Positions 7,998 through 57,346 of a stretch of 64,000 bases of DNA are shown piece by piece (positions within the stretch are counted from its first letter, which is position 1; the number at the start of each line of letters is the position of its first letter). The position numbers and the translations under genes were made by a program. The notes beneath the pieces were generated by a model. The model saw only the letters and a program-made list of their open reading frames with translations, did no database searches and was not told the origin of the DNA. Origin of the DNA: a virus. Its lineage: Duplodnaviria; Caudoviricetes. Location: the IMG/VR virus record IMGVR_UViG_3300027751_000004, positions 1 through 64,000 of that record; one strand, 5' to 3'.

Positions 7998-8028
7998 AAA
8001 ATAGTCTCTCATCTCAATTTATACAGGT

Positions 8029-8057
8029 ATTATACCACCTATTGAGATGAAAGGCAA
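8029..8057 (-). promoter_or_regulatory. early sigma70-type promoter
   Basis: TTGCCT-17bp-TATAAT. Confidence 0.75.
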
Positions 8058-8118
8058 GGTTTTTTATAACTTTTTTTATAATATTTTGTTATATGCTTAG
8101 AACTTTTCAGTATATGGC

Positions 8119-8373
8119 TTAATAAACCGCCATAATACTTTCTGCTGGTAGGAGACCAGCTTTCTCGCCTTCATGACGAACCTTCACTACGCCAGCCCAG
8201 CTAGTTACTACTTTATCTCCAGCTTCGATGCCTTCAACTTCTGGACCGACTGCCAGAACAATTGCTGGTTTAGCTACATCTGGTGCGGCACCAGACATAA
8301 TAATACCTCCAGCCGATACCGCATCTTCACCTTTTACTTCAACAACAAGTACAAAATCTTTTAATGGTTTCAT
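8119..8373 (-). CDS. groES: GroES/Cpn10-like co-chaperonin
   Basis: MKPLKDFVLV, SAGGII mobile loop, VLAVGP, GDKV. Confidence 0.8.
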   Translation of the reverse strand: MKPLKDFVLVVEVKGEDAVSAGGIIMSGAAPDVAKPAIVLAVGPEVEGIEAGDKVVTSWAGVVKVRHEGEKAGLLPAESIMAVY

Positions 8374-8389
8374 TTCAATTCCTTAATAA

Positions 8390-8959
8390 TTATTTGCTTT
8401 TTGTTCGATTCTTGCTTACTTTCTTGGCTTTCTTTTCTAGACGTTTGACAACTTCGTCGCCATCCATCCAAAGGTCTTTATTATCCAGCATAGCTTGGAT
8501 TTCTTTATCGCTCAAGAAGTCGCTATAAATGTCACGGAGTAATTTCTCAGACCAAACACGTTCATGTACAATACTATCATACATCTCACCACCCTTACCG
8601 AACTGACCGCCAGAGTAGTTATGGAACATAAACATAGAGTGAGAACTAATCTCGAATACATCTCCCTGTAGGAATATCATAGTGGCTGCAGACATACAAG
8701 CACCCTCTACTGATACGCAAACAGTCCCTTCACATTCACCTAATACACGCATCATTTGTATTGCTGTGAACAGGTCGCCCCCATAAGAATTGATATGTAT
8801 TTTTACAATATCATTTGGACCACATGAACGGATAATATCAAACCATTCGACATAATCTTCACCCCCACCAATGTGGTCAGTAAGGTAGAAACTATGTAAA
8901 CGACCAATAGGTCTATCAGAGAAGTAATCCTTCCCTTTTGTCGGAGCAAGTGAATCCAT
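8390..8959 (-). CDS. ClpP-like serine protease
   Basis: INSYGGD, CMSAAT catalytic Ser, MFHN His. Confidence 0.8.
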   Translation of the reverse strand: MDSLAPTKGKDYFSDRPIGRLHSFYLTDHIGGGEDYVEWFDIIRSCGPNDIVKIHINSYGGDLFTAIQMMRVLGECEGTVCVSVEGACMSAATMIFLQGDVFEISSHSMFMFHNYSGGQFGKGGEMYDSIVHERVWSEKLLRDIYSDFLSDKEIQAMLDNKDLWMDGDEVVKRLEKKAKKVSKNRTKSK

Positions 8960-31412: not shown

Positions 31413-32084
31413 TTACTCTGAGATATAAGAGAGACCGAGAGGGAATATCTCTCCAATGCATTGGGCAACTGCTCTTGCTACTTCCATATGCTCTTTCTGC
31501 GTACCATTACCAGAGCGCAACTCAATGAAGTGTATCCATGAGCGAATAGACCCTTGCATATATAAACGAGACTTGGTTAATCCTTCGGGTAATACTGCCC
31601 TTGCTTGCTCTTTGGCAATACCCTTTTCAAGTGCCCAGTTATATGCTTTCTCGGCTGCAGAGATAACGCTTTTCTGCGCTGCTTCCCAGTTCTCCATCAA
31701 TGCTTTATCTTCCGAATCAATACTATTCTGACGGTTCTTAGTGTCTTGTAGTCTTGCTTCTCGGATAACAAACTGATCCCCAAACTCTGACGGATCCGCA
31801 TATCTTTGAGAGAACTCTTGGAAGGCAAATGATCGGTGACGTAAAATCTGCCTTGCAATATCCCGAGTGGTTTCTATTTCTAGAGTAGCTGATGCCATTT
31901 CAAATGGCGACCAGTGCTTATGTTTTGCTAGATAGTTTAACAAACGCTCCGAAGTCTCAGAGTTAATTTGATTACTAGGATTAGAGACTCGAGCACAGAA
32001 TGCGATCAAGTCTTGAATGTCGTCCATACCTTCAGTCTGGAATGCTTCGGTTGGCTGGGTATGTCCTACAATTTGTACTTTCAT
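31413..32084 (-). CDS. thyX: flavin-dependent thymidylate synthase
   Basis: HWSPFE, RHRSFAFQEFSQRY signature, EQARAVLP. Confidence 0.95.
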   Translation of the reverse strand: MKVQIVGHTQPTEAFQTEGMDDIQDLIAFCARVSNPSNQINSETSERLLNYLAKHKHWSPFEMASATLEIETTRDIARQILRHRSFAFQEFSQRYADPSEFGDQFVIREARLQDTKNRQNSIDSEDKALMENWEAAQKSVISAAEKAYNWALEKGIAKEQARAVLPEGLTKSRLYMQGSIRSWIHFIELRSGNGTQKEHMEVARAVAQCIGEIFPLGLSYISE

Positions 32085-36569: not shown

Positions 36570-37115
36570 TTATACTATAGATGATAGTATAAAGTCAACT
36601 ACTTTTTTCGTGTCGTCAACGTTTTCGTGCCTCATTTCTTTGACACATCCTTCTTCTTCACCAAATAGAGTAACCTTGTCGCCATACTTCTCAGCAATAC
36701 GACTTACTTTAGTCTTTACAGTTTGGATGAATTTGTCACTTTGGTTTGAACCACGTTGCACGTATCTCCGTTGCCTTTCCTCGTCAGATACAGTCAAGTG
36801 AACAATAACTTTGTCGTCAAAGCAATCAAAGAAACCTCCATTATTGAGTCTGTCACCCTCGCCAATTACTACCTCGTCACGATCTTCGCTATAGTATTCA
36901 ATTGCTTTGGGTGCTACCGCCATTGATAGTCTATCGGTGCCAGAGAACGTCTCTCCTTCCTCGTACTTGCCTAGAACACGTAGGTGTCCAGAGGTATGAC
37001 TATCGAGTAGATCGATTGGTCGGTTAGTAACCCAATCATTATAGCGACTCATAAACTCTTTCATTACAGTAGACTTACCGCATCCTGGAAGTCCAATCAA
37101 ATATATTAGTTTCAT
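36570..37115 (-). CDS. P-loop nucleotide/DNA kinase of a base-modification cluster
   Basis: GLPGCGKS, GTDRLS, EGDRL; adjacent to the transferase. Confidence 0.75.
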   Translation of the reverse strand: MKLIYLIGLPGCGKSTVMKEFMSRYNDWVTNRPIDLLDSHTSGHLRVLGKYEEGETFSGTDRLSMAVAPKAIEYYSEDRDEVVIGEGDRLNNGGFFDCFDDKVIVHLTVSDEERQRRYVQRGSNQSDKFIQTVKTKVSRIAEKYGDKVTLFGEEEGCVKEMRHENVDDTKKVVDFILSSIV

Positions 37116-37124
37116 ATTATACCT

Positions 37125-38144
37125 TTACATAAATGCGTCAAGACCCATTACCACTTGACTGTCTTCGTTAAACATCCAATTCAATCTATCAATGTTGCCA
37201 GTTGATACAAACTCAGAATACTTAGACTTATTGATAACCCTAGTTTCATATACACGCTCGTCTAGAGTTTCCTCACGAGCCTGCCACAATACTTCCCATT
37301 CAATACCAGCCCAGTCATCTGCTTCGACTTTACGGATCTCTTCAGCAACTCTATCATTATAGTAACCCAAGTATCTACCATGATGCTCACGGAATATCTT
37401 CTTGAATGCGCAGAGAGCAGTTTCCATAGTGAATGTATTTAGATCTTTATCAAGGTGAGAGAATCTACTCTTCATCTCAACTAGTATAGACTTTGCCTCA
37501 TCCTCTAGCCACTGATATTCATCTGGCGTAAGTTTAGCATCATACCAATCATCTTTACCGAGAGCCATACACAAACCATTGCGGTGAGATCTAGAACCAC
37601 CATAATCCTTTAAGAGTAAAGTCCTAGGAACGTTAGGTATATGGGCAGTATGGTTTAGATGCTGTAGGAAGAACCAAGTAGAGTATCTACCAAACTTATA
37701 GAACTTGTCTGTAACTGCGTTGTATAGGTTATCAAAGTTGACATACTCGTTATCACCCATAAGAGACTCGAACGATTCACGCTGAGATCTAGATCCAACA
37801 AACTCCGCATAGGACTTGAACATATCTGGCAAATGACCTTTTGACCACTTAGTGTCTGTTTGATATCTGAGACGTTTATAGTTCTCAGTGTTCCAAAGAC
37901 TCATGCGGTCATAGGTAGCAAGTTCGAAGTCGGGGAACTCGTTGATAAGGATCCAAGCGGTCGGCAGATAATATGTGTTGCCATATAACCAAGACAACCA
38001 TATTCTCTGCTCTGAGTTATGCTCGAATCTATCATTGAGGTAGTTAGTCATCCATACGGCAGGGTCGCAGTCTTTATATTCTACCGACCAAGCATACCAC
38101 TTTATGAATGCTTCTCTACGATTTTGTTTTAATCTATAATCCAT
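37125..38144 (-). CDS. amino-acid:DNA transferase (aGPT-Pplase family, HhH-glycosylase fold)
   Basis: DCDP, FGRYSTWFFLQ, METALCAFKK, GRYLGYY; cluster context. Confidence 0.7.
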   Translation of the reverse strand: MDYRLKQNRREAFIKWYAWSVEYKDCDPAVWMTNYLNDRFEHNSEQRIWLSWLYGNTYYLPTAWILINEFPDFELATYDRMSLWNTENYKRLRYQTDTKWSKGHLPDMFKSYAEFVGSRSQRESFESLMGDNEYVNFDNLYNAVTDKFYKFGRYSTWFFLQHLNHTAHIPNVPRTLLLKDYGGSRSHRNGLCMALGKDDWYDAKLTPDEYQWLEDEAKSILVEMKSRFSHLDKDLNTFTMETALCAFKKIFREHHGRYLGYYNDRVAEEIRKVEADDWAGIEWEVLWQAREETLDERVYETRVINKSKYSEFVSTGNIDRLNWMFNEDSQVVMGLDAFM

Positions 38145-38145
38145 A

Positions 38146-39438
38146 TTACTCTTCAAATGCAGGAAGTACATCAACCTGAATATCTAGCTGGTGGAAGTTG
38201 ATGGTATCTTTTAGGTCTTTTAACCAAGAGCCATCTTCATGCTCAGCGATCTCCATCTTAGAAGTATAGTGAAGAACAATAGCACCTTTATCGGCACTGA
38301 CGTTTTTCATTCTACGACATATATAACCAAACGCTTGACCATGTTTTGCTTTAGACATCTGAGCATGAACAGTAGCGATATTATCCTTACCATAGTTTTC
38401 CCATTCATACCGCTCAAAGAACGCATCATCATAAGCAATGATGTTAGATTGATACTTCAGAGATGCCTCTGTTTTCTGTATGCGGTTTTGAACAGACTTA
38501 AACAAACCACTTAGCTTTTTCTTAGAGGGGATTACAAGGATGAATCTATCATAGATTAGTTTCCTTGCTCGCTCCTCTTGTAGCGGTTGCGATATATCAA
38601 GTTTCTGCTCGAGGATGAAGTTTTGCATCTGGCGTTTGATATCTTCATCGCTATTATACTCACGAATCTTATCACCCTCTTTGTTCATTAACATACCAAA
38701 GAAGTTGTAGTTCGTTTTCCTAGTTTTCTCATTAGAGCCAAACTCCGACTCGTTAATAAAGATAACAGGAGCAGTAGATATTCCTCGGACTTTCATAAGG
38801 GCAGCAGTTCGGTTGTTACCATCTAGGATAGTACGCTCGCCATCAGATTTAACCACAACTGTAATCGGGTCGAGTAACTCAGATATCTTCTCTGGGTTCT
38901 CTTCCATAGCGTTTACTAGTTTACTCACATGATGTGGCTTAATAGTTTCTACACGGACTTGGTTCTTACTGTACGATGATAACTGGTTCAAAGGCACTTG
39001 TTGAACATCGTATTTGCTACCTGCTATATTATCGGCAATTGTTTTGATTCTTTGATTCTCATCAGCAAAGGAGTTTTCGATTTCAATACCGTCAGTCTTA
39101 CCCTCGATATAATCAATAATAACTTCCTTCATCTCTGGAGTGATAAGTGCCTCGTCAACACAATGCGCATTATTCTTATAATTGTACATGAGGTCTCTGG
39201 ATACTTTGGTGCCATACTTGAGGGCAAACCACTCAAGGGTTTTTGCGATATCTAGATCTTGCTCTTTGCCCACATAGATTATACTGCGTTTGAGTAGACC
39301 ACAACTGTAGTCTTGCCAAAACTCTGGATTCTCGGATGATGAAATGTAGAATGATTTACCAGCTGGTTGTAACCCGATATACATCTTACTGGATTCAATA
39401 TTGCGATATGCATAAACATATACGTTATTAGTCAACAC
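38146..39438 (-). CDS. GIY-YIG-like N-terminus fused to a ParB/Srx-like domain
   Basis: YVYAYRN...MYIG; PITVV...ILDGNNRTAAL; GTG start with GAGGAG RBS. Confidence 0.55.
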   Translation of the reverse strand: MLTNNVYVYAYRNIESSKMYIGLQPAGKSFYISSSENPEFWQDYSCGLLKRSIIYVGKEQDLDIAKTLEWFALKYGTKVSRDLMYNYKNNAHCVDEALITPEMKEVIIDYIEGKTDGIEIENSFADENQRIKTIADNIAGSKYDVQQVPLNQLSSYSKNQVRVETIKPHHVSKLVNAMEENPEKISELLDPITVVVKSDGERTILDGNNRTAALMKVRGISTAPVIFINESEFGSNEKTRKTNYNFFGMLMNKEGDKIREYNSDEDIKRQMQNFILEQKLDISQPLQEERARKLIYDRFILVIPSKKKLSGLFKSVQNRIQKTEASLKYQSNIIAYDDAFFERYEWENYGKDNIATVHAQMSKAKHGQAFGYICRRMKNVSADKGAIVLHYTSKMEIAEHEDGSWLKDLKDTINFHQLDIQVDVLPAFEE

Positions 39439-39472
39439 GTGCTTTTCTCCTCTATTCGGTCAAGCAAGTAGT

Positions 39473-39501
39473 ATTATATAATAAAATGACACAAAAGTAA
39501 A
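39473..39501 (-). promoter_or_regulatory. early promoter inside the modification cluster
   Basis: TTTACT-17bp-TATAAT. Confidence 0.8.
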
Positions 39502-39509
39502 GGTTTTTT

Positions 39510-40043
39510 TTAAAAGAATTCTGTGAGTCCTTCTGGCTCTACAAACACTTCAACACAACCACCTTTACCTTTCTTGTTTACTGCAGCAAAGATTGTTGGG
39601 TCTGATATATCATAGTAACCATCTTGAAATGTATTATTGATACGGAACATTGATAATTGACATCCGCTTTTCTGTTTACCTAGAAACTGAAACCCACATT
39701 TCTCGTAAAAGGCAACAGCATCTGGCTCGGACGAAACACGGTAGTATAGTGCTTTATCTGCCTTTGCCCTTTGTAAAGATTCGATACAAAGTGTTCTACC
39801 GACCCCTTTACCTCTATGATTAGCAAAAGTATGAAGCAGTTGAAGGTTCGCTACTTTTGGCGAACGTTTTGACACAGTTGTGATGATTGCTCCGAGTAAG
39901 TCGTTACCGTCCCAGAGACCAATGCAATAATCCCACTGCCCCTGCATGTTCGCCTTTGTTACAAATGTTTTGGCGAACTTGTCTGCAGGATCAGTAGTAA
40001 TGGCAGAAGTAAATTCTTCTGCTGTAGTTTTACGCAACTTCAT
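39510..40043 (-). CDS. GNAT acetyltransferase
   Basis: HRGKGVGR acetyl-CoA motif, AVAFYEKCGF. Confidence 0.9.
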   Translation of the reverse strand: MKLRKTTAEEFTSAITTDPADKFAKTFVTKANMQGQWDYCIGLWDGNDLLGAIITTVSKRSPKVANLQLLHTFANHRGKGVGRTLCIESLQRAKADKALYYRVSSEPDAVAFYEKCGFQFLGKQKSGCQLSMFRINNTFQDGYYDISDPTIFAAVNKKGKGGCVEVFVEPEGLTEFF

Positions 40044-40902
40044 GGTATTCACGCTTTTTAGTTCCACGTTCTTTAGCCCATTTAGTTTTCTGATGACCGA
40101 CCCACTGGTTCAAATTCCAATCAAATGGAGGGAACTCATAGTCTCCTTCCGATAGTATTTCTTTTACGCTTGGACCACCGTTTAGGGCAGCATCTATAAA
40201 TGCTTCAACGAAGCGGAACATAGACTCCATATGCTTGCGTTCAGTTGTAGCACGGAAGCAACGGAACTCTATCGTACCAGTGTGTTTCATACAATAGGTA
40301 TTGATAGCATATCTGAAAGGTCTACCCATAGAAACTCCATCCTTACCTGCTGCGTGTAACTTGATAAAGTGATCAAAGTCGGTAGCAAGATTCATGATAT
40401 TGTTTGCCATGTATTCAGGCATTTGACGACCACCATCATACTTCATGTACATCTTAGCACCTTTTGCTTTCTTCATTGAACCAGATTCGTGAAAGAGTCC
40501 GCAGTTCTCGACAACATCAGCTTGGTTATCTTTGATGTACTTTATCAAACGCTTCAGAGCGTCTAGATCTTCAGTCAGCTTTGGTACATAAACATGTAGG
40601 TGAGAATGGCTGAGGCAGTTAGAAGTAGGTTCGCAACCCTGATCAATAAACCACTGTTTAACCTCTTGGATACGGTCTACCTGTCCTTCCCAAGTTTTAG
40701 TCGGTTTGGTATTAACCTCACCGCCAAACGGAGGGTCTTCACCTAGAGGGTCGCAGGCAACGTATCTATAAGGATCTCGTAGATTAACTACGTCAGTCTC
40801 GGAGTATTCCCAACTACCAAGATGTTCGGGTATTTCTAACCTGCGGTCAATATCGCCCCATTCAATTTCATATCCCCAAGTAAAGTCTTTTTTATCATAC
40901 AT
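40030..40902 (-). CDS. amidoligase (glutamine synthetase/COOH-NH2 ligase fold)
   Basis: WGYEIEW, GGEVN, HSHLHV, TIEFRCF. Confidence 0.75.
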   Translation of the reverse strand: MYDKKDFTWGYEIEWGDIDRRLEIPEHLGSWEYSETDVVNLRDPYRYVACDPLGEDPPFGGEVNTKPTKTWEGQVDRIQEVKQWFIDQGCEPTSNCLSHSHLHVYVPKLTEDLDALKRLIKYIKDNQADVVENCGLFHESGSMKKAKGAKMYMKYDGGRQMPEYMANNIMNLATDFDHFIKLHAAGKDGVSMGRPFRYAINTYCMKHTGTIEFRCFRATTERKHMESMFRFVEAFIDAALNGGPSVKEILSEGDYEFPPFDWNLNQWVGHQKTKWAKERGTKKREYHEVA

Positions 40903-40914
40903 AACAATTTACCT

Positions 40915-41529
40915 TTAAGGTTGTAAGTCTTCACCAGCATAATCTACTCGGCTGGTTTCTAAAGTTTTAAATCCACTACGTTTAATAATATCTTGAGTTG
41001 ATGAGTATATCTTACCTCGATCAACTTCGGCTGTCCAAAGTGGACGTTTACCATTACGCATATATTGTATACCATTTCTGTCCAAAAGTAAAGCAGAAAT
41101 TGATGCGGTTTCCCAAGCAGTAGGATCTGGTCGATGAAACAGTAACTCAGAGTCGTTTGCCGTTTCACAATCTAACTCGTATAGATCTTTCCAGTTCTCT
41201 GGTAACTCTTGAGAGATAACCCCATTATGAACAAGAGATAAACCCTCATCCGCAATAGGTTGATTGAATCTAAGGTCAGAAGTGCTATAACGACAATGAG
41301 CAACTGCCTTCATATCTCCATTCTCGTCAACCCAGTCTGCTGGATTATTGTTCTTCATAAACTCAACAGCATCTACTGGCTCTTTAATGGTATGAACCTT
41401 ACCCTCTTTCAGGTAAGATACGCCAGTGGCATGCTTGCCTCTAATCCTAGATTCAATGAATAGGTGACGGATAGAAGATATATCCTTAGCAGTTACGCCA
41501 CTTATCTCAATACCAATTACTGCGCACAC
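40915..41529 (-). CDS. class II (Ntn) glutamine amidotransferase
   Basis: N-terminal MCAVIG, RGKHATG, HCRYST, QP, HNG, NDSE. Confidence 0.9.
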   Translation of the reverse strand: MCAVIGIEISGVTAKDISSIRHLFIESRIRGKHATGVSYLKEGKVHTIKEPVDAVEFMKNNNPADWVDENGDMKAVAHCRYSTSDLRFNQPIADEGLSLVHNGVISQELPENWKDLYELDCETANDSELLFHRPDPTAWETASISALLLDRNGIQYMRNGKRPLWTAEVDRGKIYSSTQDIIKRSGFKTLETSRVDYAGEDLQP

Positions 41530-42941
41530 TAGAAGAACTCCTCCAAACTTGCTTTTTCTTCATATGCTTCAGGGTGGTACTTTTCTACCATTTCTCGACC
41601 ACCAGTAGATTCAAGATACTCGTACCATTCATCAGAGTCCCACATTGAAGGTGATACGCCATTCCATCGATCACGCCACATAGGATGCTCTTTGTTAAGT
41701 CTACGATGATCAACAAACTGTCTGCGGATTACCTCATAGTCATACGAGCCAAGCTGTAGCATATCCTCGCGGAAGTAGAATACTAGCGACATACGAAGCA
41801 TATCATCTTCACCTGAGTCAGGTGCTTCGATCGGAGTGTTACCGTGAATGATTCTCATATTATCTACAAGCAGTAGATCTCCTGGACGAGCATTAATAGC
41901 CATACGAACTTCAGGGCAACAGAGATAACCGCCTTTCCAATCTGTACCATCTTTGGTAACTACTGTTAGATTGCTGAAACCCTCATTCAAAGAACCAGCA
42001 TCACGATGACAAGCCATACGTGCGTTACGATCTTTGGTGGTTGTATTTACAGTAATCGTAGTAAAGGTAGTATCCTCGCCAATAAGGAATCGTTTGTCCA
42101 TTTGCTCAGCGCACTTCTGTTGGCGACCATATCGTACAGGTAGCAAACGTTTGAACTCAGCTTCTAGTTTACGAGCAAACGGATAGCATTTCTCAAAGGT
42201 TGTGCGATTATGCTCAGTGAACGAAGTCGGTCTACCAAACGGAATACGAGGATACCTACCATAGAAGCCAGCAATACCAGACCACAATGCTGCTGCGTAA
42301 GAAGTTTGAGAGATGTAGCTATCATATATTTTCTTAGCCGTAACTGATGCTTCACGCAAGTCAGCATCTCTTAGTTCTTCCATTACAGTGTTAAAGAATG
42401 TGCGGTAATCGCCATAATCATTCTCAACTTTAGATCGTAACCAAACAGAACCACGTGCTTCGTTATTACCGCTACCAAGATACTTTTCTTTGATAGCTTC
42501 AAGAGGATCGGAGCCATCAAGAGATAGCGGTTGACCATCCATGTAATACTTGAGGACTTCTACCTGATAGGGAGTTACCCAATCACGCCCACCACTTTTC
42601 TCTACTCGCTCACCTGCTGCCAAACCACGATTATGAGATTCAACCGCAGCATCGAACAAACCATCAAACGCACCTGATTGCTCGTCTGATGTGAATGTGT
42701 TTTTACGGAACTTGAATGCTATTCTATCTTCATTAAGTTCGCCAACCTCACCATCTACATTAGATTCCGCTGGTAAGTATACGTCGGCATCACTATCAAT
42801 TACGATATCGTAGCTTTCTTCCGTAGCAAATTTACCGAGCAAGTCGTCTTGGTTCTCGACAAAAAGAGCAACATATACGTCTTGCCCCTCATCGCCTTTG
42901 AACTTCTGCCACTTGCGACCATTTATATCAATTATTTCCAT
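41529..42941 (-). CDS. TET/JBP-family 2OG-Fe(II) dioxygenase
   Basis: FTTITVN, CHRDAG (HxD), IHGNTPI, RMSLVFYFRE. Confidence 0.85.
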   Translation of the reverse strand: MEIIDINGRKWQKFKGDEGQDVYVALFVENQDDLLGKFATEESYDIVIDSDADVYLPAESNVDGEVGELNEDRIAFKFRKNTFTSDEQSGAFDGLFDAAVESHNRGLAAGERVEKSGGRDWVTPYQVEVLKYYMDGQPLSLDGSDPLEAIKEKYLGSGNNEARGSVWLRSKVENDYGDYRTFFNTVMEELRDADLREASVTAKKIYDSYISQTSYAAALWSGIAGFYGRYPRIPFGRPTSFTEHNRTTFEKCYPFARKLEAEFKRLLPVRYGRQQKCAEQMDKRFLIGEDTTFTTITVNTTTKDRNARMACHRDAGSLNEGFSNLTVVTKDGTDWKGGYLCCPEVRMAINARPGDLLLVDNMRIIHGNTPIEAPDSGEDDMLRMSLVFYFREDMLQLGSYDYEVIRRQFVDHRRLNKEHPMWRDRWNGVSPSMWDSDEWYEYLESTGGREMVEKYHPEAYEEKASLEEFF

Positions 42942-42964
42942 AATATTCTCCTAATACAACGCAT

Positions 42965-42993
42965 ATTATACTATACTTCATACTAAATGTCAA
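42965..42993 (-). promoter_or_regulatory. perfect-consensus sigma70 promoter of the modification cluster
   Basis: TTGACA-17bp-TATAAT. Confidence 0.85.
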
Positions 42994-43372
42994 GCACTTT
43001 TTTCAAATCAGGTTCAGAATAATCTGGACCCTTTAGAATCTTACCATCTTCACGATAGATGGGTTTACCATCCTCGCCCAACTTACTCATATTAGATCTT
43101 TGTACCTCACGGAAACAAGCGTCAAGGTCAATACCAAATGCGTGTCCTGCGCCATAGGTAACATATAGAATATCAGTTAGTGCGTCAGCAACCTCAACCA
43201 TATCCTTTTCTGCCATTGCTACAAATAGTTCTTGTAGTTCTTCTTTGATAAGTTCGTATCGTAGAGCAACAGTATCTAAATCTGGGAACTCAGGCGATCG
43301 CTTTACTTCCTGCCCAAAGGCATCCATAAAGACATTTACTTTGTTAAAGTTTGTTTGGTAATAGTGTGTCAT
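42983..43372 (-). CDS. MazG-like NTP pyrophosphohydrolase
   Basis: LIKEELQEL, EVADALTDILYV, EVQRSNMSK. Confidence 0.85.
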   Translation of the reverse strand: MTHYYQTNFNKVNVFMDAFGQEVKRSPEFPDLDTVALRYELIKEELQELFVAMAEKDMVEVADALTDILYVTYGAGHAFGIDLDACFREVQRSNMSKLGEDGKPIYREDGKILKGPDYSEPDLKKVLDI

Positions 43373-45894
43373 TGAAAAAAGTCCTCTAGTGATATTTTCT
43401 CTTCTTCGTTCCAGCCGATTGCGGCAAGTATTGGTCTAACAACTTCCAAGAATGCTTTGTCGAACTGGAGGTCATAGTCAACGTATTTATGCAGCTTTAA
43501 ATCTTCGGGTAAGAAGTCTGGGAATGCGATTACATTTTCTTTAATAGGGTTTGGTACTTTAAGATAGGCAAACTTTATCTTTTCGCCATCTTTGATTGTT
43601 TGATACTTACGACCCAAGCCATTAGTCTCAATTTGATTATTGTAGAGTAATGACCCACGAACATGAATAGGTGTACCCTTCCTATAGATGAGTTGGCGGT
43701 CTACCCAATTAGTTACATTAGAAACTCCACGAGGGAATGCTACATCCTCTGGCGGTAGAGTGATAAAGTAATCCTTGAACTGCTTGATTGCCATTTGGGT
43801 TGTAGCTTCATCCTGAGTTATGATAACCTTGAACAACTCTTTGAGTGCTTTACGACAAGATGCGGGAGTAGAGGATTTAACTGCTTCGATACCCATAATC
43901 TTGAGTTTAGGTTCTGCGTATTGAACACCCTCGTTATTATGTACGTTTAGTATGTAACGTTTCTTAGCAGTCCAGATACCAGCATCAGCAATAGCTTCAC
44001 GAGCCATGACCATCTTGTTCTCATAAGCATCCATATACTCAGCTAGGTCGCCATAAGAATTTTCTAGCATAGGCTCGAACTGTTCAGAACAGACCTTATC
44101 AAGCATCTTTACAGTTTCAGCTTTGGGTAAGTCTTTGAAGTATTTATCGACGAGAGGTTCAAAGTTAATATACAACGAATCAGTATCGATGGCGATAACA
44201 TAATCTTTATCTTCTCCGATAATCTTGGACATGAATCGATTAACTGCCTGCTCTGCCCACCTGATCGATAACTGACCTGATAGCGTAATACCCTCAGCAA
44301 TACGCAGGTCAAAGTAACGGAACCAGCGATTACCAATAGCACCATAGAGAGAATTCATCATAATCTTGATAGCCATCTGTTCATTATCGAGAGTGGATAT
44401 CTTTTTCTCTAGTTGATATACTTCGGTCTTTTTAGTTTTATCAACGCCCTCTAGTTCCTGCGTGGCATCTAGCATCTGACGCTTTACTTGTTTCCTGCCA
44501 GCATATAGACTACCAACAACCTCAGGAATAACTCCACAAATATCCTTACGATAATGCGAACCATTTGCTGCCATGGTACAGTCGGGGCGTGCACTTTGAG
44601 GTTTACGACCCGACAAACAAGCATCAACGTTCACCCCCATAGTCGCATCATTTACGATAGTCTCGGGAGACATATTGTACTGCATAATCAGGTGAGGGTA
44701 TAGAGAGTTTAAGTCAAAGGAAACGACCCAAGCATGGCGACCAACCATAGGACTTTTAACAAAACCTCCAGGAAAGTCAGTCTTCATCTTTTCTTGTTTG
44801 GGCGGTACTGCTGTTTTCTTTTCGTATAGTTCTCGATAGAGGAACGTATCCCAAATACCAGTAGTACCAAACGCATCGCTGTAGTTTACCCCAGCTTTGT
44901 ACGCCAGAGTCATACACAAGGTGATGAGACCCATCTTATCTTCTAGTCGGTCAACTAGTTCTACGTCTTTGATATTATAGTCAACGAACTTCTGGTGATC
45001 GTGTTTGTACAGAGTAAAGAGATTACCATACTCCTCATAGGATAACTTGTTCTCCCCCAAAACAACATGGGCAATATGGTCAAGTTTGTATGACTCTTCG
45101 GCAGTATAGGTAAACTTCCTATAGAGATCCAAATAATCTATCTGCTCAACACCTTTGATCTCAAACTTCTGCTCGGTCTTACCTTTGATAGTAACCTTGC
45201 GCTCGTCGATTTTACCCCAAGGTGATAGTTTCTTAGCCATATCCTGACCAATCACTTTAGTTATTCGGTTGATCATATAGGTCATATCAAACAGAGTTGA
45301 GTTCCAACCAGTAATTACATCTGGCATGAACCGAGCATTAGACCAATGGGTAACAAACTCCATAAGTAATCTGGCTTCGGACTCGCACTTCTTGTAGATA
45401 ACTTGATTGTCCTGCATAATGGACTTAGAGGTATCGTAGTCGCCCAGACCCCAAACATAATATATGTTATCGATATTATTCTTAAGAGTAATTGTGATTA
45501 CTGGGTGATCTGCATATTGAGGTTCAGGGAATCCCTCGTCGGAAGCGACCTCAATATCGATGGTAGTGACATTGATAATGTCACGATTGAACTCAATAGT
45601 TCCTGGATACTTTTCCTGAACATACTGAGCAATGTAATTTGTATTGCCGTGAATCTTGAAGTTAGAGGTATCCCCATATTGCTGGATAAACTCCCTTGCT
45701 TCACGCATTGTATCGAAGTCTATTGGCTTGAGTGGTGCACCTGTTAAGGATTTCCAATCACCGCCTTCAGCTGGGACATATAGGGTTGGTGAGAAACGGA
45801 CACGTTCGGAATATTTATTCCCATCACGATATCCACGGACAAGTATGTCGTTAGAGAATCTGCTAACTGAGGTGTAGAAAGTATTATTCATCAT
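43369..45894 (-). CDS. 43: family B DNA polymerase gp43
   Basis: DIEV exo I, SFDLNSLYPH, KIMMNSLYG, IDTDS, KKRY; no intein or intron. Confidence 0.97.
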   Translation of the reverse strand: MMNNTFYTSVSRFSNDILVRGYRDGNKYSERVRFSPTLYVPAEGGDWKSLTGAPLKPIDFDTMREAREFIQQYGDTSNFKIHGNTNYIAQYVQEKYPGTIEFNRDIINVTTIDIEVASDEGFPEPQYADHPVITITLKNNIDNIYYVWGLGDYDTSKSIMQDNQVIYKKCESEARLLMEFVTHWSNARFMPDVITGWNSTLFDMTYMINRITKVIGQDMAKKLSPWGKIDERKVTIKGKTEQKFEIKGVEQIDYLDLYRKFTYTAEESYKLDHIAHVVLGENKLSYEEYGNLFTLYKHDHQKFVDYNIKDVELVDRLEDKMGLITLCMTLAYKAGVNYSDAFGTTGIWDTFLYRELYEKKTAVPPKQEKMKTDFPGGFVKSPMVGRHAWVVSFDLNSLYPHLIMQYNMSPETIVNDATMGVNVDACLSGRKPQSARPDCTMAANGSHYRKDICGVIPEVVGSLYAGRKQVKRQMLDATQELEGVDKTKKTEVYQLEKKISTLDNEQMAIKIMMNSLYGAIGNRWFRYFDLRIAEGITLSGQLSIRWAEQAVNRFMSKIIGEDKDYVIAIDTDSLYINFEPLVDKYFKDLPKAETVKMLDKVCSEQFEPMLENSYGDLAEYMDAYENKMVMAREAIADAGIWTAKKRYILNVHNNEGVQYAEPKLKIMGIEAVKSSTPASCRKALKELFKVIITQDEATTQMAIKQFKDYFITLPPEDVAFPRGVSNVTNWVDRQLIYRKGTPIHVRGSLLYNNQIETNGLGRKYQTIKDGEKIKFAYLKVPNPIKENVIAFPDFLPEDLKLHKYVDYDLQFDKAFLEVVRPILAAIGWNEEEKISLEDFFQ

Positions 45895-45901
45895 ATAGTA
45901 T

Positions 45902-45930
45902 ATTATACCGCATTTAATGGTAAAAGTCAA
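45902..45930 (-). promoter_or_regulatory. sigma70-type promoter abutting the gp43 start
   Basis: TTGACT-17bp-TATAAT. Confidence 0.75.
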
Positions 45931-46153: not shown

Positions 46154-46606
46154 TTAGTCTTGAATAAACGTTTCTTTCTTTGATGCCCCAGTAGATCCGA
46201 TTTCGATCTTGCGGGGACGCTTCTCTTCTGGGATTACTACCTTCAGCTGAACAGCAAGGATTCCATCCTTCAGATCGGCTCCGTGAACTTCGACATACTC
46301 AGATATTCTAAAGGAACGATTGAACTTCTTGGCACTAATGCCTTTGTGAATATACGATCGACCTCTATTTTTATGTTCTCCTCGAACAAAGAGTGTGCGG
46401 TCTTTGACTTCAATTTCAAGCTCGTCTTCAGCAAAACCAGCAACAGCCAACTCCACCATATAATTCTCATCATCAACTTTGAGGATGTTATGTGGGGGAT
46501 AATGATCGTTAGCGTGTCTTGCGACCTTATCTAACTCGTCGAATAAATGGTCAAACCCAACAAACGCTGAGCGTGGGAATAGTGATTTAACATTGATATT
46601 AGTCAT
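46154..46606 (-). CDS. hsp20: small heat shock protein (IbpA-like)
   Basis: VGFDHLF, YPPHNI, LAVAGF, HKGIS, ADLKDGIL. Confidence 0.95.
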   Translation of the reverse strand: MTNINVKSLFPRSAFVGFDHLFDELDKVARHANDHYPPHNILKVDDENYMVELAVAGFAEDELEIEVKDRTLFVRGEHKNRGRSYIHKGISAKKFNRSFRISEYVEVHGADLKDGILAVQLKVVIPEEKRPRKIEIGSTGASKKETFIQD

Positions 46607-46894: not shown

Positions 46895-47560
46895 CTAGGA
46901 TTTCTTTTGAGACTTAATCCATTTAGCAGCAATTTTGTTTTCAGGTGGTTTTTTAGACCACACCATAATCTTCTTGTATGCACTCATAGTCCCACGTTCA
47001 ACGTCTGAACTAGTAGAGTTATCAACAATCGTTAGTCTATCACGGAATAGATTCTGAAATTTACCTATATTCTTTTGTACGTCTTTCCACATATCTTCTA
47101 CGCTATCGTCTGGTAGAGATCTTGATCTGTTTCTGTTACGCTCAAGGGCAGTATCTAAATCGGTATTTACAAAGATCATAGCAACAGCATACCCAACTTT
47201 ACGAAGCATGTCAACCTGTTTCTTGATCTTTGCATAGTCCTTACCAGTGCCGTCTATCACTAGACCAAGTCTACCCTCGACGGCACGTTCCATCTTTTTA
47301 CCAGTAAGTGCCTTTGACTTGGCACGTACATCTTGACCTTGAACCGAAAAGAGAGCTTCTGGATCCATAGTCAACCCAGCTTTCTTTAATCCTTTCTCAA
47401 AAGCATCGTCTGAGTTTATTAGTTTAAACCCTAATGCTTGTAATGCGGTCTTACCGACCACAAAAGACTTACCACTTCCTGGACCACCAGCCAAAAATAC
47501 TGCCTTGAAAATGGCAGGATCGTTTACTCCTTCCTCGAGATAAGTCTTAAAACTTAGCAT
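46895..47560 (-). CDS. zeta-toxin/AAA_33-like P-loop kinase
   Basis: AGGPGSGKS, INSDD, VIDGTG, ALERNRNR. Confidence 0.8.
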   Translation of the reverse strand: MLSFKTYLEEGVNDPAIFKAVFLAGGPGSGKSFVVGKTALQALGFKLINSDDAFEKGLKKAGLTMDPEALFSVQGQDVRAKSKALTGKKMERAVEGRLGLVIDGTGKDYAKIKKQVDMLRKVGYAVAMIFVNTDLDTALERNRNRSRSLPDDSVEDMWKDVQKNIGKFQNLFRDRLTIVDNSTSSDVERGTMSAYKKIMVWSKKPPENKIAAKWIKSQKKS

Positions 47561-56919: not shown

Positions 56920-57346
56920 ATTTCTCCACCTCAATGCCACATTGATGTAAAAACTCAATACCTTGATTAGTCCTGTAATCATTCTTATATATTACTTTCT
57001 TAATCCCAGATTGATAGATCAACTTGGCGCATTCTATACAAGGAGAATGAGTGATGAATATATCAGCACCCTCTCCGCTTTCTGACGACTTAGCAAGTTT
57101 TGTTATTGCGTTTGCTTCTGCGTGTAACACTTCTGGTTTTGTTTGTAAAAACTGAATGTCGCCATTTGGCCATTTAATTTCTTCTTCACAGGTATTATCC
57201 CAACCAGATGGCATACCATTATAGCCAATGGAGATGATGCGATCATCTTTTACGACAATCGCACCAACTTGTAGCTTTTTAGCTGTACTGAGTTTTGAGA
57301 ACCTTTCGGCTACGTCAATATATGCGGATACGAACTTATCCTTCAT
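56906..57346 (-). CDS. cd: dCMP deaminase
   Basis: GYNG, HAEANA, PCIEC. Confidence 0.92.
   Translation of the reverse strand: MKDKFVSAYIDVAERFSKLSTAKKLQVGAIVVKDDRIISIGYNGMPSGWDNTCEEEIKWPNGDIQFLQTKPEVLHAEANAITKLAKSSESGEGADIFITHSPCIECAKLIYQSGIKKVIYKNDYRTNQGIEFLHQCGIEVEKYEQS

Follow-up and report, generated by a model that had tools for sequence, protein, structure and literature searches.

Hypermodification of 5-hydroxymethyl-deoxyuridine (5-hmdU) has been characterised in the phages M6, ViI, PaMx11, SP10 and PhiW-14, where a kinase and then an amino-acid:DNA transferase (AADT) act at the C5 methyl group (Lee et al. 2018; Lee et al. 2021, PMC8989533). In metagenomic contigs, a TET_JBP gene replaces the dUMP hydroxymethylase gene beside genes for an AADT, a kinase, an amidoligase and an amidotransferase, the latter two of unknown function (Lee et al. 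2021, PMC8989533). The phage 5mYOX enzymes were identified in vivo and in vitro as post-replicative T-dioxygenases that make 5-hydroxymethyluracil (5hmU); one subclass depends on a ParB-like activator and is 'consistently linked' with GATases (glutamine amidotransferases), with P-loop kinases and with AADTs (O'Toole et al. 2026, PMC13229309). Here we describe a cluster of this type, located on the minus strand at positions 36,570 to 43,372 of a 64-kb stretch of DNA (hereafter the window), which is the first part of a 120-kb record of a T4-like phage in IMG/VR (IMGVR_UViG_3300027751_000004; CheckV completeness about 66%). An earlier note on this DNA had listed nine elements in the cluster, and open reading frame (ORF) calls, Pfam, motifs and fold models confirm all nine on the minus strand at the positions given below. 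On balance, the cluster is probably a mobile cassette with which T4-like phages hypermodify thymidine after replication, with a pathway that would include amination by the GATase and the AADT and tethering of enzymes to the sliding clamp.

As in the five 5-hmdU phages, the locus combines a kinase, an AADT that carries the ETxxC motif and a candidate tailoring GNAT acyltransferase. Unlike in these phages, 5hmU would be formed on the polymer by the dioxygenase and not from hmdUTP via a dUMP hydroxymethylase; moreover, the window has no pyridoxal phosphate-dependent decarboxylase, radical S-adenosylmethionine enzyme or flavin adenine dinucleotide-dependent enzyme, and its GATase and amidoligase are without a characterised counterpart. 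Hydroxylation of DNA thymine by a TET/JBP enzyme after replication, followed by decoration of 5hmU, would also recall the synthesis of base J by the distantly related kinetoplastid enzymes JBP1 and JBP2. In base J the hydroxyl is directly glucosylated, whereas here it would be phosphorylated and then replaced by a nitrogen nucleophile. The ParB-dependent T-dioxygenases (5mYOX clade C1; O'Toole et al., PNAS 2026, PMC13229309) share with the locus a Tet_JBP gene without an adjacent C5-methyltransferase gene, the linkage to a GATase, a P-loop kinase, an AADT and a ParB-fold protein, and an extended dioxygenase C-terminus; MxParB and CcParB are among the best structural matches of the ParB-like protein of the window. 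They also differ. The dioxygenase of the window has about 470 residues, against about 300 in clade C1. The ParB homologs of clade C1 comprise nucleotide-binding and C-terminal domains and no DNA-binding domain, whereas the ParB-fold protein of the window (430 aa) has an extra GIY-YIG-like N-terminal domain and an α/β C-terminal domain, is encoded four genes downstream of the dioxygenase and is lacking in the majority of related cassettes.

In order to define the composition of the cassette, gene content was counted in 25 related loci with enough flanking sequence. Genes for the TET/JBP dioxygenase (TET), the GATase, the AADT and the kinase were each present in all 25, and a contiguous minimal TET-GATase-AADT-kinase unit was found at one locus (L057). 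The amidoligase gene was present in 19 loci, the GNAT gene in 17 and the ParB-like gene in 9. The core of the cassette is thus made of TET, GATase, AADT and kinase, and the amidoligase, GNAT and ParB-like genes are add-ons. Depending on the locus, the cassette follows gp43, gp46/47 or a DnaB-type helicase gene, and these different backbone positions show that it moves as a module. Between the AADT and kinase genes, related cassettes often carry a small ORF without family match (76-144 aa; for instance L016:12266-12496, L015:7015-7449 and L026:11056-11487), which is absent in the window. The family is abundant: dioxygenase clusters number at least 2374, those of the amidoligase at least 553, and at least 588 IMG/VR loci carry the GATase. 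Only metagenomic contigs yielded the cassette of the window in full, and no cultured phage in the searched collection has the full set. The cultured T4-like phages C48C1, DLP6 and Cr30 pair the dioxygenase with TET-associated glycosyltransferases, a UDP-galactopyranose mutase and a nucleotidyltransferase; Cr30 has an AADT and a kinase as well.

Co-variation between the cassette proteins was analysed by comparing pairwise identity matrices between cassettes, using 49 non-redundant cassettes and 28 extended ones. The GATase and the AADT gave rho values of 0.71 (49 cassettes) and 0.68 (28 extended cassettes), the latter being the highest of all pairs in that set. The GATase and TET, encoded by adjacent genes, reached only 0.31 and 0.37, respectively, and the GATase and the amidoligase, also neighbours, gave 0.13 in the extended cassettes, the lowest value of any GATase pair. 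The kinase co-varies best with TET (0.39 and 0.50), the GNAT and the AADT gave 0.50 in the extended cassettes, and the other core pairs ranged from 0.28 to 0.31 and from 0.26 to 0.47. Together with the existence of the minimal cassette, these data argue for the AADT, rather than the amidoligase, as the partner of the GATase. The pairing of GATase with amidoligase put forward in the earlier note thus finds no support: one is a core gene and the other optional, and co-variation (0.68-0.71 against 0.13) points in the same direction.

The properties of the GATase itself fit a partner-dependent enzyme. The protein (204 aa; 40915..41529, minus strand) is a stand-alone class II, or N-terminal nucleophile (Ntn), glutamine amidotransferase domain (GATase_6, 6e-9). 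It begins with M1-C2, and eight orthologs of 42-49% identity all keep residues C2, R30, G31, R80, N102-G103 and D126. The class II catalytic set is thus complete and there is no synthase domain, which implies that the enzyme needs a partner. Near their C-terminus, the GATases of the window and of the orthologous loci show a conserved acidic (E/D)DLQ sequence (EDLQP, IEDLQ, DLQYELC), different from the clamp-type tail described below, which may be a docking motif for the partner.

The AADT (37125..38174, minus strand; C-terminus ...GLDAFM), formerly of the aGPT-Pplase2 type, matches PF18724 (ADDT) with an E-value of 7e-19 and 68.9 bits for a cut-off of 26.2, as the earlier note had expected of this gene. 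Its 'METxLC' sequence (METALC in the window) contains E251 and C255, which do not vary among six orthologs with identities as low as 26% and which correspond, by motif, to E243/T244/C247 of PaMx11 gp46 (motif from PMC11472151). In gp46, this Glu-Thr-x-x-Cys motif supports covalent catalysis at C6 and phosphate displacement (PMC11472151). The AADT is 28% identical over 93% of its length to ViI-like aGPT-Pplase2 proteins, an identity too low to indicate nucleophile specificity. Neither the AADT sequence nor an AADT profile found anything useful among solved structures, and the profile did not retrieve the gp46 chain. The core is completed by a P-loop kinase of 181 aa, a putative 5-hmdU DNA kinase (36570..37115, minus strand), which matches PF18751 (Ploopntkinase3) with 47.7 bits (cut-off 27; E 1.7e-12) and has the Walker A motif GLPGCGKST. 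In tblastn searches it matched genes annotated as 'adenylate kinase' in Cr30 and actinophages, and not the characterised M6 or ViI kinases. Family and context designate it as a putative kinase of 5hmU in DNA.

The TET/JBP-family Fe(II)/2-oxoglutarate dioxygenase (470 aa; 41529..42941, minus strand) is a putative DNA thymine C5-methyl hydroxylase. It matches PF12851 (Tet_JBP) with 59.4 bits (cut-off 34.9; E 3.3e-16) and phrog_24024 with an E-value of 5e-144, and all 120 homologs listed match PF12851. The HRD...H...R motifs were read in the translation as ACHRDAG, IIHGN and MLRMSLVFYF, residue roles being assigned by motif order. For the N-terminal half, the ESM Atlas gave only sub-threshold hints of Tet_JBP. 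C48C1, the Stenotrophomonas phage DLP6 and the Caulobacter phage Cr30, the closest cultured phages with the dioxygenase, carry orthologs of 40-64% identity (loci L001, L002 and L003); GenBank labels these 'SNF2 DNA repair protein' although they lack an SNF2 domain, a mis-annotation presumably inherited from JBP2. The three complete genomes contain no PF00145 (C5-methyltransferase), and for this reason thymine is favoured as the substrate. The 120-kb record, about 66% complete, likewise has no match to PF00145 or to PF00303, the family of ThyA-type hydroxymethylases, so that the absence reported for the window in the earlier note extends to the entire record. Ordinary dTMP supply, also claimed there, agrees with the presence of a ThyX gene (31440-32027) and a dCMP deaminase gene (56987-57325).

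These data lead us to propose the following pathway. The dioxygenase would hydroxylate thymine in phage DNA to 5hmU, a reaction shown for related phage enzymes. The P-loop kinase would convert 5hmU to 5-phosphomethyl-deoxyuridine, as its family and context suggest, and the conserved Cys of the AADT would attack C6 while an amine displaces the phosphate, according to the mechanism known for the family. The stand-alone Ntn glutaminase would give the AADT glutamine-derived ammonia, leading to 5-aminomethyl-deoxyuridine (5-NmdU). We propose this as the most economical chemistry by analogy with PurF (glutamine phosphoribosyl pyrophosphate amidotransferase), in which a phosphate-type leaving group at the partner site gives way to ammonia released by a class II Ntn glutaminase (with Cys1, Asp and an Asn-Gly oxyanion hole). 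It is an analogy only: the two domains of PurF are fused, whereas the proteins of the window are separate and their acceptor would be a DNA base. In extended cassettes, such as that of the window, an ATP-dependent amidoligase with the glutamine synthetase fold and an acyl-CoA-dependent GNAT would N-acylate the amine, or acylate and cap an appended residue; the amidoligase would join a carboxylate, which may be an amino acid, to the amine of 5-NmdU or to the appended residue. PaMx11 makes 5-NmdU by another route, after which a GNAT acetylates it (PMC8989533). The sequence of reactions from thymine to 5hmU after replication, phosphorylation and substitution by the transferase, as drawn in the earlier note, fits the absence of C5-methyltransferase and hydroxymethylase from the record and of C5-methyltransferase from the three ortholog-bearing genomes, the E-T-x-x-C motif of the AADT and the activity of related T-dioxygenases (PMC13229309); its amidoligase-GATase pairing and its inclusion of MazG are not supported, and its novelty is overstated.

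The PaMx11 enzyme concerned, the GNAT gp48, acetylates 5-NmdU to 5-AcNmdU (PMC8989533) and would be a direct precedent, by analogy, for the GNAT of the window (185 aa; 39510..40067, minus strand; Acetyltransf_10, 9e-12; C-terminus ...GLTEFF). The second tailoring enzyme is a putative carboxylate-amine ligase of the Amidoligase_2 family with a predicted glutamine synthetase fold (290 aa; 40030..40902, minus strand). The protein itself scores 16.7 bits against PF12224, below the cut-off of 22 (E 0.007). This profile is matched by 47 of its 90 remote phmmer homologs, the best at 3.7e-13. In addition, the AlphaFold2 (AF2) model (predicted local distance difference test, pLDDT, 97.8) resembles glutamine synthetase, gamma-glutamylcysteine ligase, YbdK and PafA/Dop as top Foldseek folds, at weak E-values of 3e-3 to 3e-2. 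The assignment is upheld by the homolog matches, through transitivity, and by the predicted fold. Residues E12, E14, E62, R197, E212 and R214 are invariant, and a sequence search against solved structures gave nothing useful. In cultured phages, tblastn found no match for the GNAT and only two distant ones for the amidoligase. A distant homolog (26% identity) belongs to the Vibrio jumbo phage 2.275.O (L027, MG592671.1 332034-336294), where it adjoins QueF-like, QueC-like, GTP cyclohydrolase I and Ntn 'nucleophile aminohydrolase' genes; the pairing of amidoligase and Ntn enzyme may thus also serve 7-deazaguanine DNA modification. In locus L024, the amidoligase (8001-8873) is 75% identical to that of the window, all other cassette proteins being 90-97% identical and the nucleotide sequence about 90% identical over 12 kb, which points to a recent exchange of the amidoligase gene alone between cassettes.

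Several cassette proteins end with a short sequence that resembles the C-termini of ligands of the gp45 sliding clamp. The gp43, gp55 and gp33 proteins of T4 bind gp45 through interchangeable hydrophobic-acidic C-termini (PMC2988020). The window encodes a gp45 clamp; the gp43 of this phage ends in ...ISLEDFFQ and its gp55 in ...NLELFMG, and similar endings, of the type SLExFF, are found in the dioxygenase (...ASLEEFF), the GNAT and the AADT. As in the T4 ligands, a variable linker precedes the motif, which stands at the very C-terminus; unlike in them, the carriers are DNA base-modifying enzymes, predicted as ligands from sequence. The motif is present in 119 of 120 database homologs of the dioxygenase and in 66 of 69 members of an independent locus set, and in 13/13 polymerases gp43 of related loci. 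Its strict form is present in 27 of 63 AADTs, most of the frequent other endings being GLExF-like, and in 7 of 37 GNATs, where it is variable; none of 80 GATases, 42 amidoligases and 59 kinases carries it. The TET-adjacent TAGT glycosyltransferases of other T4-like phages, including DLP6 and Cr30, have the tail. In contrast, the TET homologs that served as negative controls lack it; they come from one podovirus, one siphovirus and one myovirus that is not T4-like. This suggests that the dioxygenase, the AADT and in part the GNAT are probably tethered to gp45 and act just behind the replication fork. The paper describing the T-dioxygenases uses 'clamp' only for ParB/KorB clamps and does not discuss gp45 or a clamp-type tail (PMC13229309). 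More tentatively, and short of an even chance in our estimate, base hypermodification as a whole would be coupled to replication, with T-dioxygenase, DNA transferase, TET-associated glycosyltransferases and some GNATs held on gp45 by a polymerase-type tail, and with a split PurF-like amination leading to an acylated, undescribed base. A single structural protein of the record, a baseplate hub protein (phrog_150; 118777-119481 of the record, outside the window), ends in ...EGLQSFF, a likeness that is probably due to chance.

The third add-on is a three-domain protein of 430 aa (38146..39438, minus strand) without Pfam match, whose AF2 model has a pLDDT of 86.5. Residues 1-88 resemble the GIY-YIG domains of I-TevI (VIA-align Z 6.4, a middling score), PD-T4-3 and UvrC, residues ~129-325 have a ParB/Noc/KorB/Srx fold (Foldseek E 4e-5 to 1e-3; Z 8.2 with pNOB8 ParB-N in VIA-align) and residues 333-430 form an α/β domain with weak matches only; a sequence search against solved structures gave nothing useful. 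In the ParB-like part, the boxes Q160/R162 and G207-N208-x-R210 are conserved, and an invariant Asn occupies the position of the hydrolytic Glu of chromosomal ParB, the equivalences being drawn from motif order and spacing. The GIY-YIG-like domain keeps Y9, E69 and N89/N90 throughout, Asn takes the place of the second catalytic Tyr in 25 of 34 members, and an Arg is missing at the position expected from R27 of I-TevI. The fold likeness stands, and membership among active nucleases is doubtful. There are 34 full-length homologs of 40-67% identity, with distant ones at 25-31%. The gene always occupies the slot between GNAT and AADT and occurs in 15 of 80 loci overall; it is missing from most cassettes of both dioxygenase subgroups, being absent in 16 of the 25 well-flanked loci. 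In the Pelagibacter phage HTVC112P, a small ParB encoded directly upstream of a TET homolog aligns to residues 144-284 of the protein. The compact unit of this cultured pelagiphage (L109, 6973-9195) consists of a ParB (209 aa), a TET protein (302 aa) and an FkbM-type methyltransferase, and offers a tractable case of a ParB paired with a dioxygenase. By analogy, the GIY-YIG-like/ParB-fold protein is most likely an optional accessory, equivalent to the ParB proteins that activate phage T-dioxygenases, with an activator or loader role comparable to that of ParB176. Two other ideas were rejected. A recent horizontal transfer of the gene, considered because the protein is 95% identical in L024 when the amidoligase is 75% identical, was discarded since a full comparison put the identity of L024 at about 90% over its whole length, the exchanged gene being that of the amidoligase; and the 203-aa ORF that fills the slot in L026 is unrelated to the family.

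Other chemistries can be envisaged for the same genes. In the route drawn in the earlier note, the AADT would load phosphorylated 5hmU with a free amino acid of the glycine or serine type, the amidoligase would amidate its carboxylate with ammonia from the GATase, and the GNAT would acetylate the amine, resulting in a capped side chain. Characterised AADTs do transfer amino acids (PMC8989533), and the nearest cultured AADT homologs, at 28% identity, are of the ViI type. Moreover, the GATase and amidoligase genes adjoin in every extended cassette, and the distant amidoligase of the Vibrio jumbo phage lies near an Ntn hydrolase in a 7-deazaguanine cluster. Against this, the GATase is present in all 25 cassettes, 6 of which have no amidoligase, and in the contiguous four-gene unit, so that its job is independent of the amidoligase; the weak co-variation of these two neighbours, compared with the strong co-variation of GATase and AADT, goes the same way. 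We consider this route unlikely. Oxidation of 5-methylcytosine (5mC) by the dioxygenase, as in the phage TETs of clades A and B, with the kinase and the transferase then modifying 5-hydroxymethylcytosine (5hmC), would require a methyltransferase, either from the host or encoded in the missing third of the genome. Some phage TETs do oxidise 5mC, a role of the P-loop kinase on 5hmC was suggested for some contigs (PMC8256090), the T-dioxygenases characterised in vitro oxidise 5mC as well (PMC13229309), and the record is incomplete. PF00145 is lacking both in these 120 kb and in the three complete genomes with orthologs, however; a C5-methyltransferase accompanies only 6% of 5mYOX pathways, and the pathways with a linked kinase and AADT are placed in the T-dioxygenase clade (PMC13229309). 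Since, in addition, all characterised pairs of AADT and kinase act on 5hmU derivatives (PMC8989533), we regard the 5mC route as very improbable and retain thymine as the substrate.

The accessory protein and the C-terminal tail can also be read in other ways. The GIY-YIG-like/ParB-fold gene could be a selfish gene of the homing-endonuclease type, or encode a nuclease directed against unmodified host DNA, rather than an activator of the dioxygenase. Its N-terminal domain resembles the nuclease folds of I-TevI, PD-T4-3 and UvrC, its C-terminal domain weakly matches restriction-endonuclease folds, it has a promoter-like site of its own, and it occurs patchily in the two TET subgroups, in a single slot that is elsewhere empty or filled by the unrelated 203-aa ORF. 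The replacement of the second catalytic Tyr in most members and the missing Arg argue against a nuclease, and versions that are only 25-31% identical share one slot, suggesting long residence. Some phage T-dioxygenases were found experimentally to require ParB-fold partners (PMC13229309), and the small ParB of HTVC112P lies upstream of a TET homolog. A nuclease or selfish gene is less likely, and the activator role is preferred. As for the tail, it could be unrelated to clamp binding and represent a signal for mutual assembly of the enzymes or for their turnover, or a lineage-specific quirk. Its binding to gp45 is a prediction, the baseplate hub protein has a similar ending, and an interaction reported between the T4 alpha-glucosyltransferase and gp45 is disputed, not having been reproduced in a recent preprint (10.64898/2025.12.06.692756). 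The same motif, however, ends gp43 and gp55 of this phage, two classical gp45 ligands; about 185 of 189 TET homologs keep it at the extreme C-terminus after a linker that varies, and it is missing in homologs from phages without a T4-type replisome. We thus think it improbable that the tail has a function other than clamp binding.

Several points weigh against the proposed cassette, and in particular against amination by GATase and AADT, the activator role and clamp tethering. All steps of the pathway are deduced from homology and context. Characterised AADTs use glycine, serine or putrescine, and ammonia is thus only a proposed substrate; co-variation can reflect a shared recombination history and not physical partnership. 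The dioxygenase gave no sequence match to solved TET/JBP structures, only to TauD/clavaminate-type enzymes over about 50 residues, and a methyltransferase or hydroxymethylase gene could sit in the missing third of the genome. The ParB-like protein differs in architecture from the studied ParBs of about 200 aa, is encoded four genes away from the dioxygenase and is lacking in most cassettes. Finally, the kinase, which would also act on DNA, has no tail, the tail of the GNAT is poorly conserved, and the ...GLQSFF ending of the baseplate hub protein indicates that chance tail matches occur.

The cassette follows the gene for the family-B DNA polymerase gp43 (43369..45930, minus strand; DNA_pol_B; phrog_262, E 0). 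Between them lies a gene for a MazG/PRA-PH-like NTP pyrophosphohydrolase (42983..43372, minus strand; PF01503, 3e-23), whose end is overlapped by a sigma-70-type promoter, TTGACA-17-TATAAT (42965..42993, minus strand; 12/12 match). This site has the top score in the 10.7-kb region scanned and is the putative promoter of the cassette. The MazG-like gene was counted in the cluster by the earlier note; it stands upstream of the promoter, and synteny shows that it is not adjacent to the cassette in loci L016, L019, L025 and L026. It is a neighbour of the cassette and not a member. A second promoter-like site, TTTACT-17-TATAAT (39473..39501, minus strand; 10/12 match), precedes the ParB-like gene; matches of 10/12 are about equally frequent in shuffled sequence, making this site weak evidence. 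Upstream of gp43 are an Hsp20 gene and a gene for a P-loop ATPase resembling polynucleotide kinase, at 46154-46606 and 46895-47560, and the order Hsp20-gp43-MazG-cassette recurs in locus L024.

The type of cassette described here is thus already known. Neighbourhoods of this kind were published in 2021 (PMC8989533) and 2026 (PMC13229309), the conversion of T to 5hmU is experimentally backed in relatives, and the central proposal of the earlier note is a published prediction; its statement that no end product is defined for this gene combination agrees with the literature searched. What is new in the present comparison of sequences is the division into core and add-on genes, the proposed partnership of GATase and AADT, and the survey of clamp-type tails across homologs. 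Uncultured, apparently aquatic T4-like phages carry this cassette family very commonly and, as no cultured phage in the searched collection has the full set, a widespread DNA base is chemically undefined. The problem is now narrowed to four core genes, two optional acylating enzymes and the prediction of a glutamine-derived nitrogen on the C5-methyl of thymine. Should the clamp tail be genuine, this would be the first sequence-level case for base-modifying enzymes tethered to a phage replisome, an idea debated for the T4 glucosyltransferases, and reconstitution in E. coli should supply the clamp and its loader and avoid C-terminal tags. Coupling to the clamp, if true, may also explain why such dioxygenases were inactive when expressed alone in E. 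coli.

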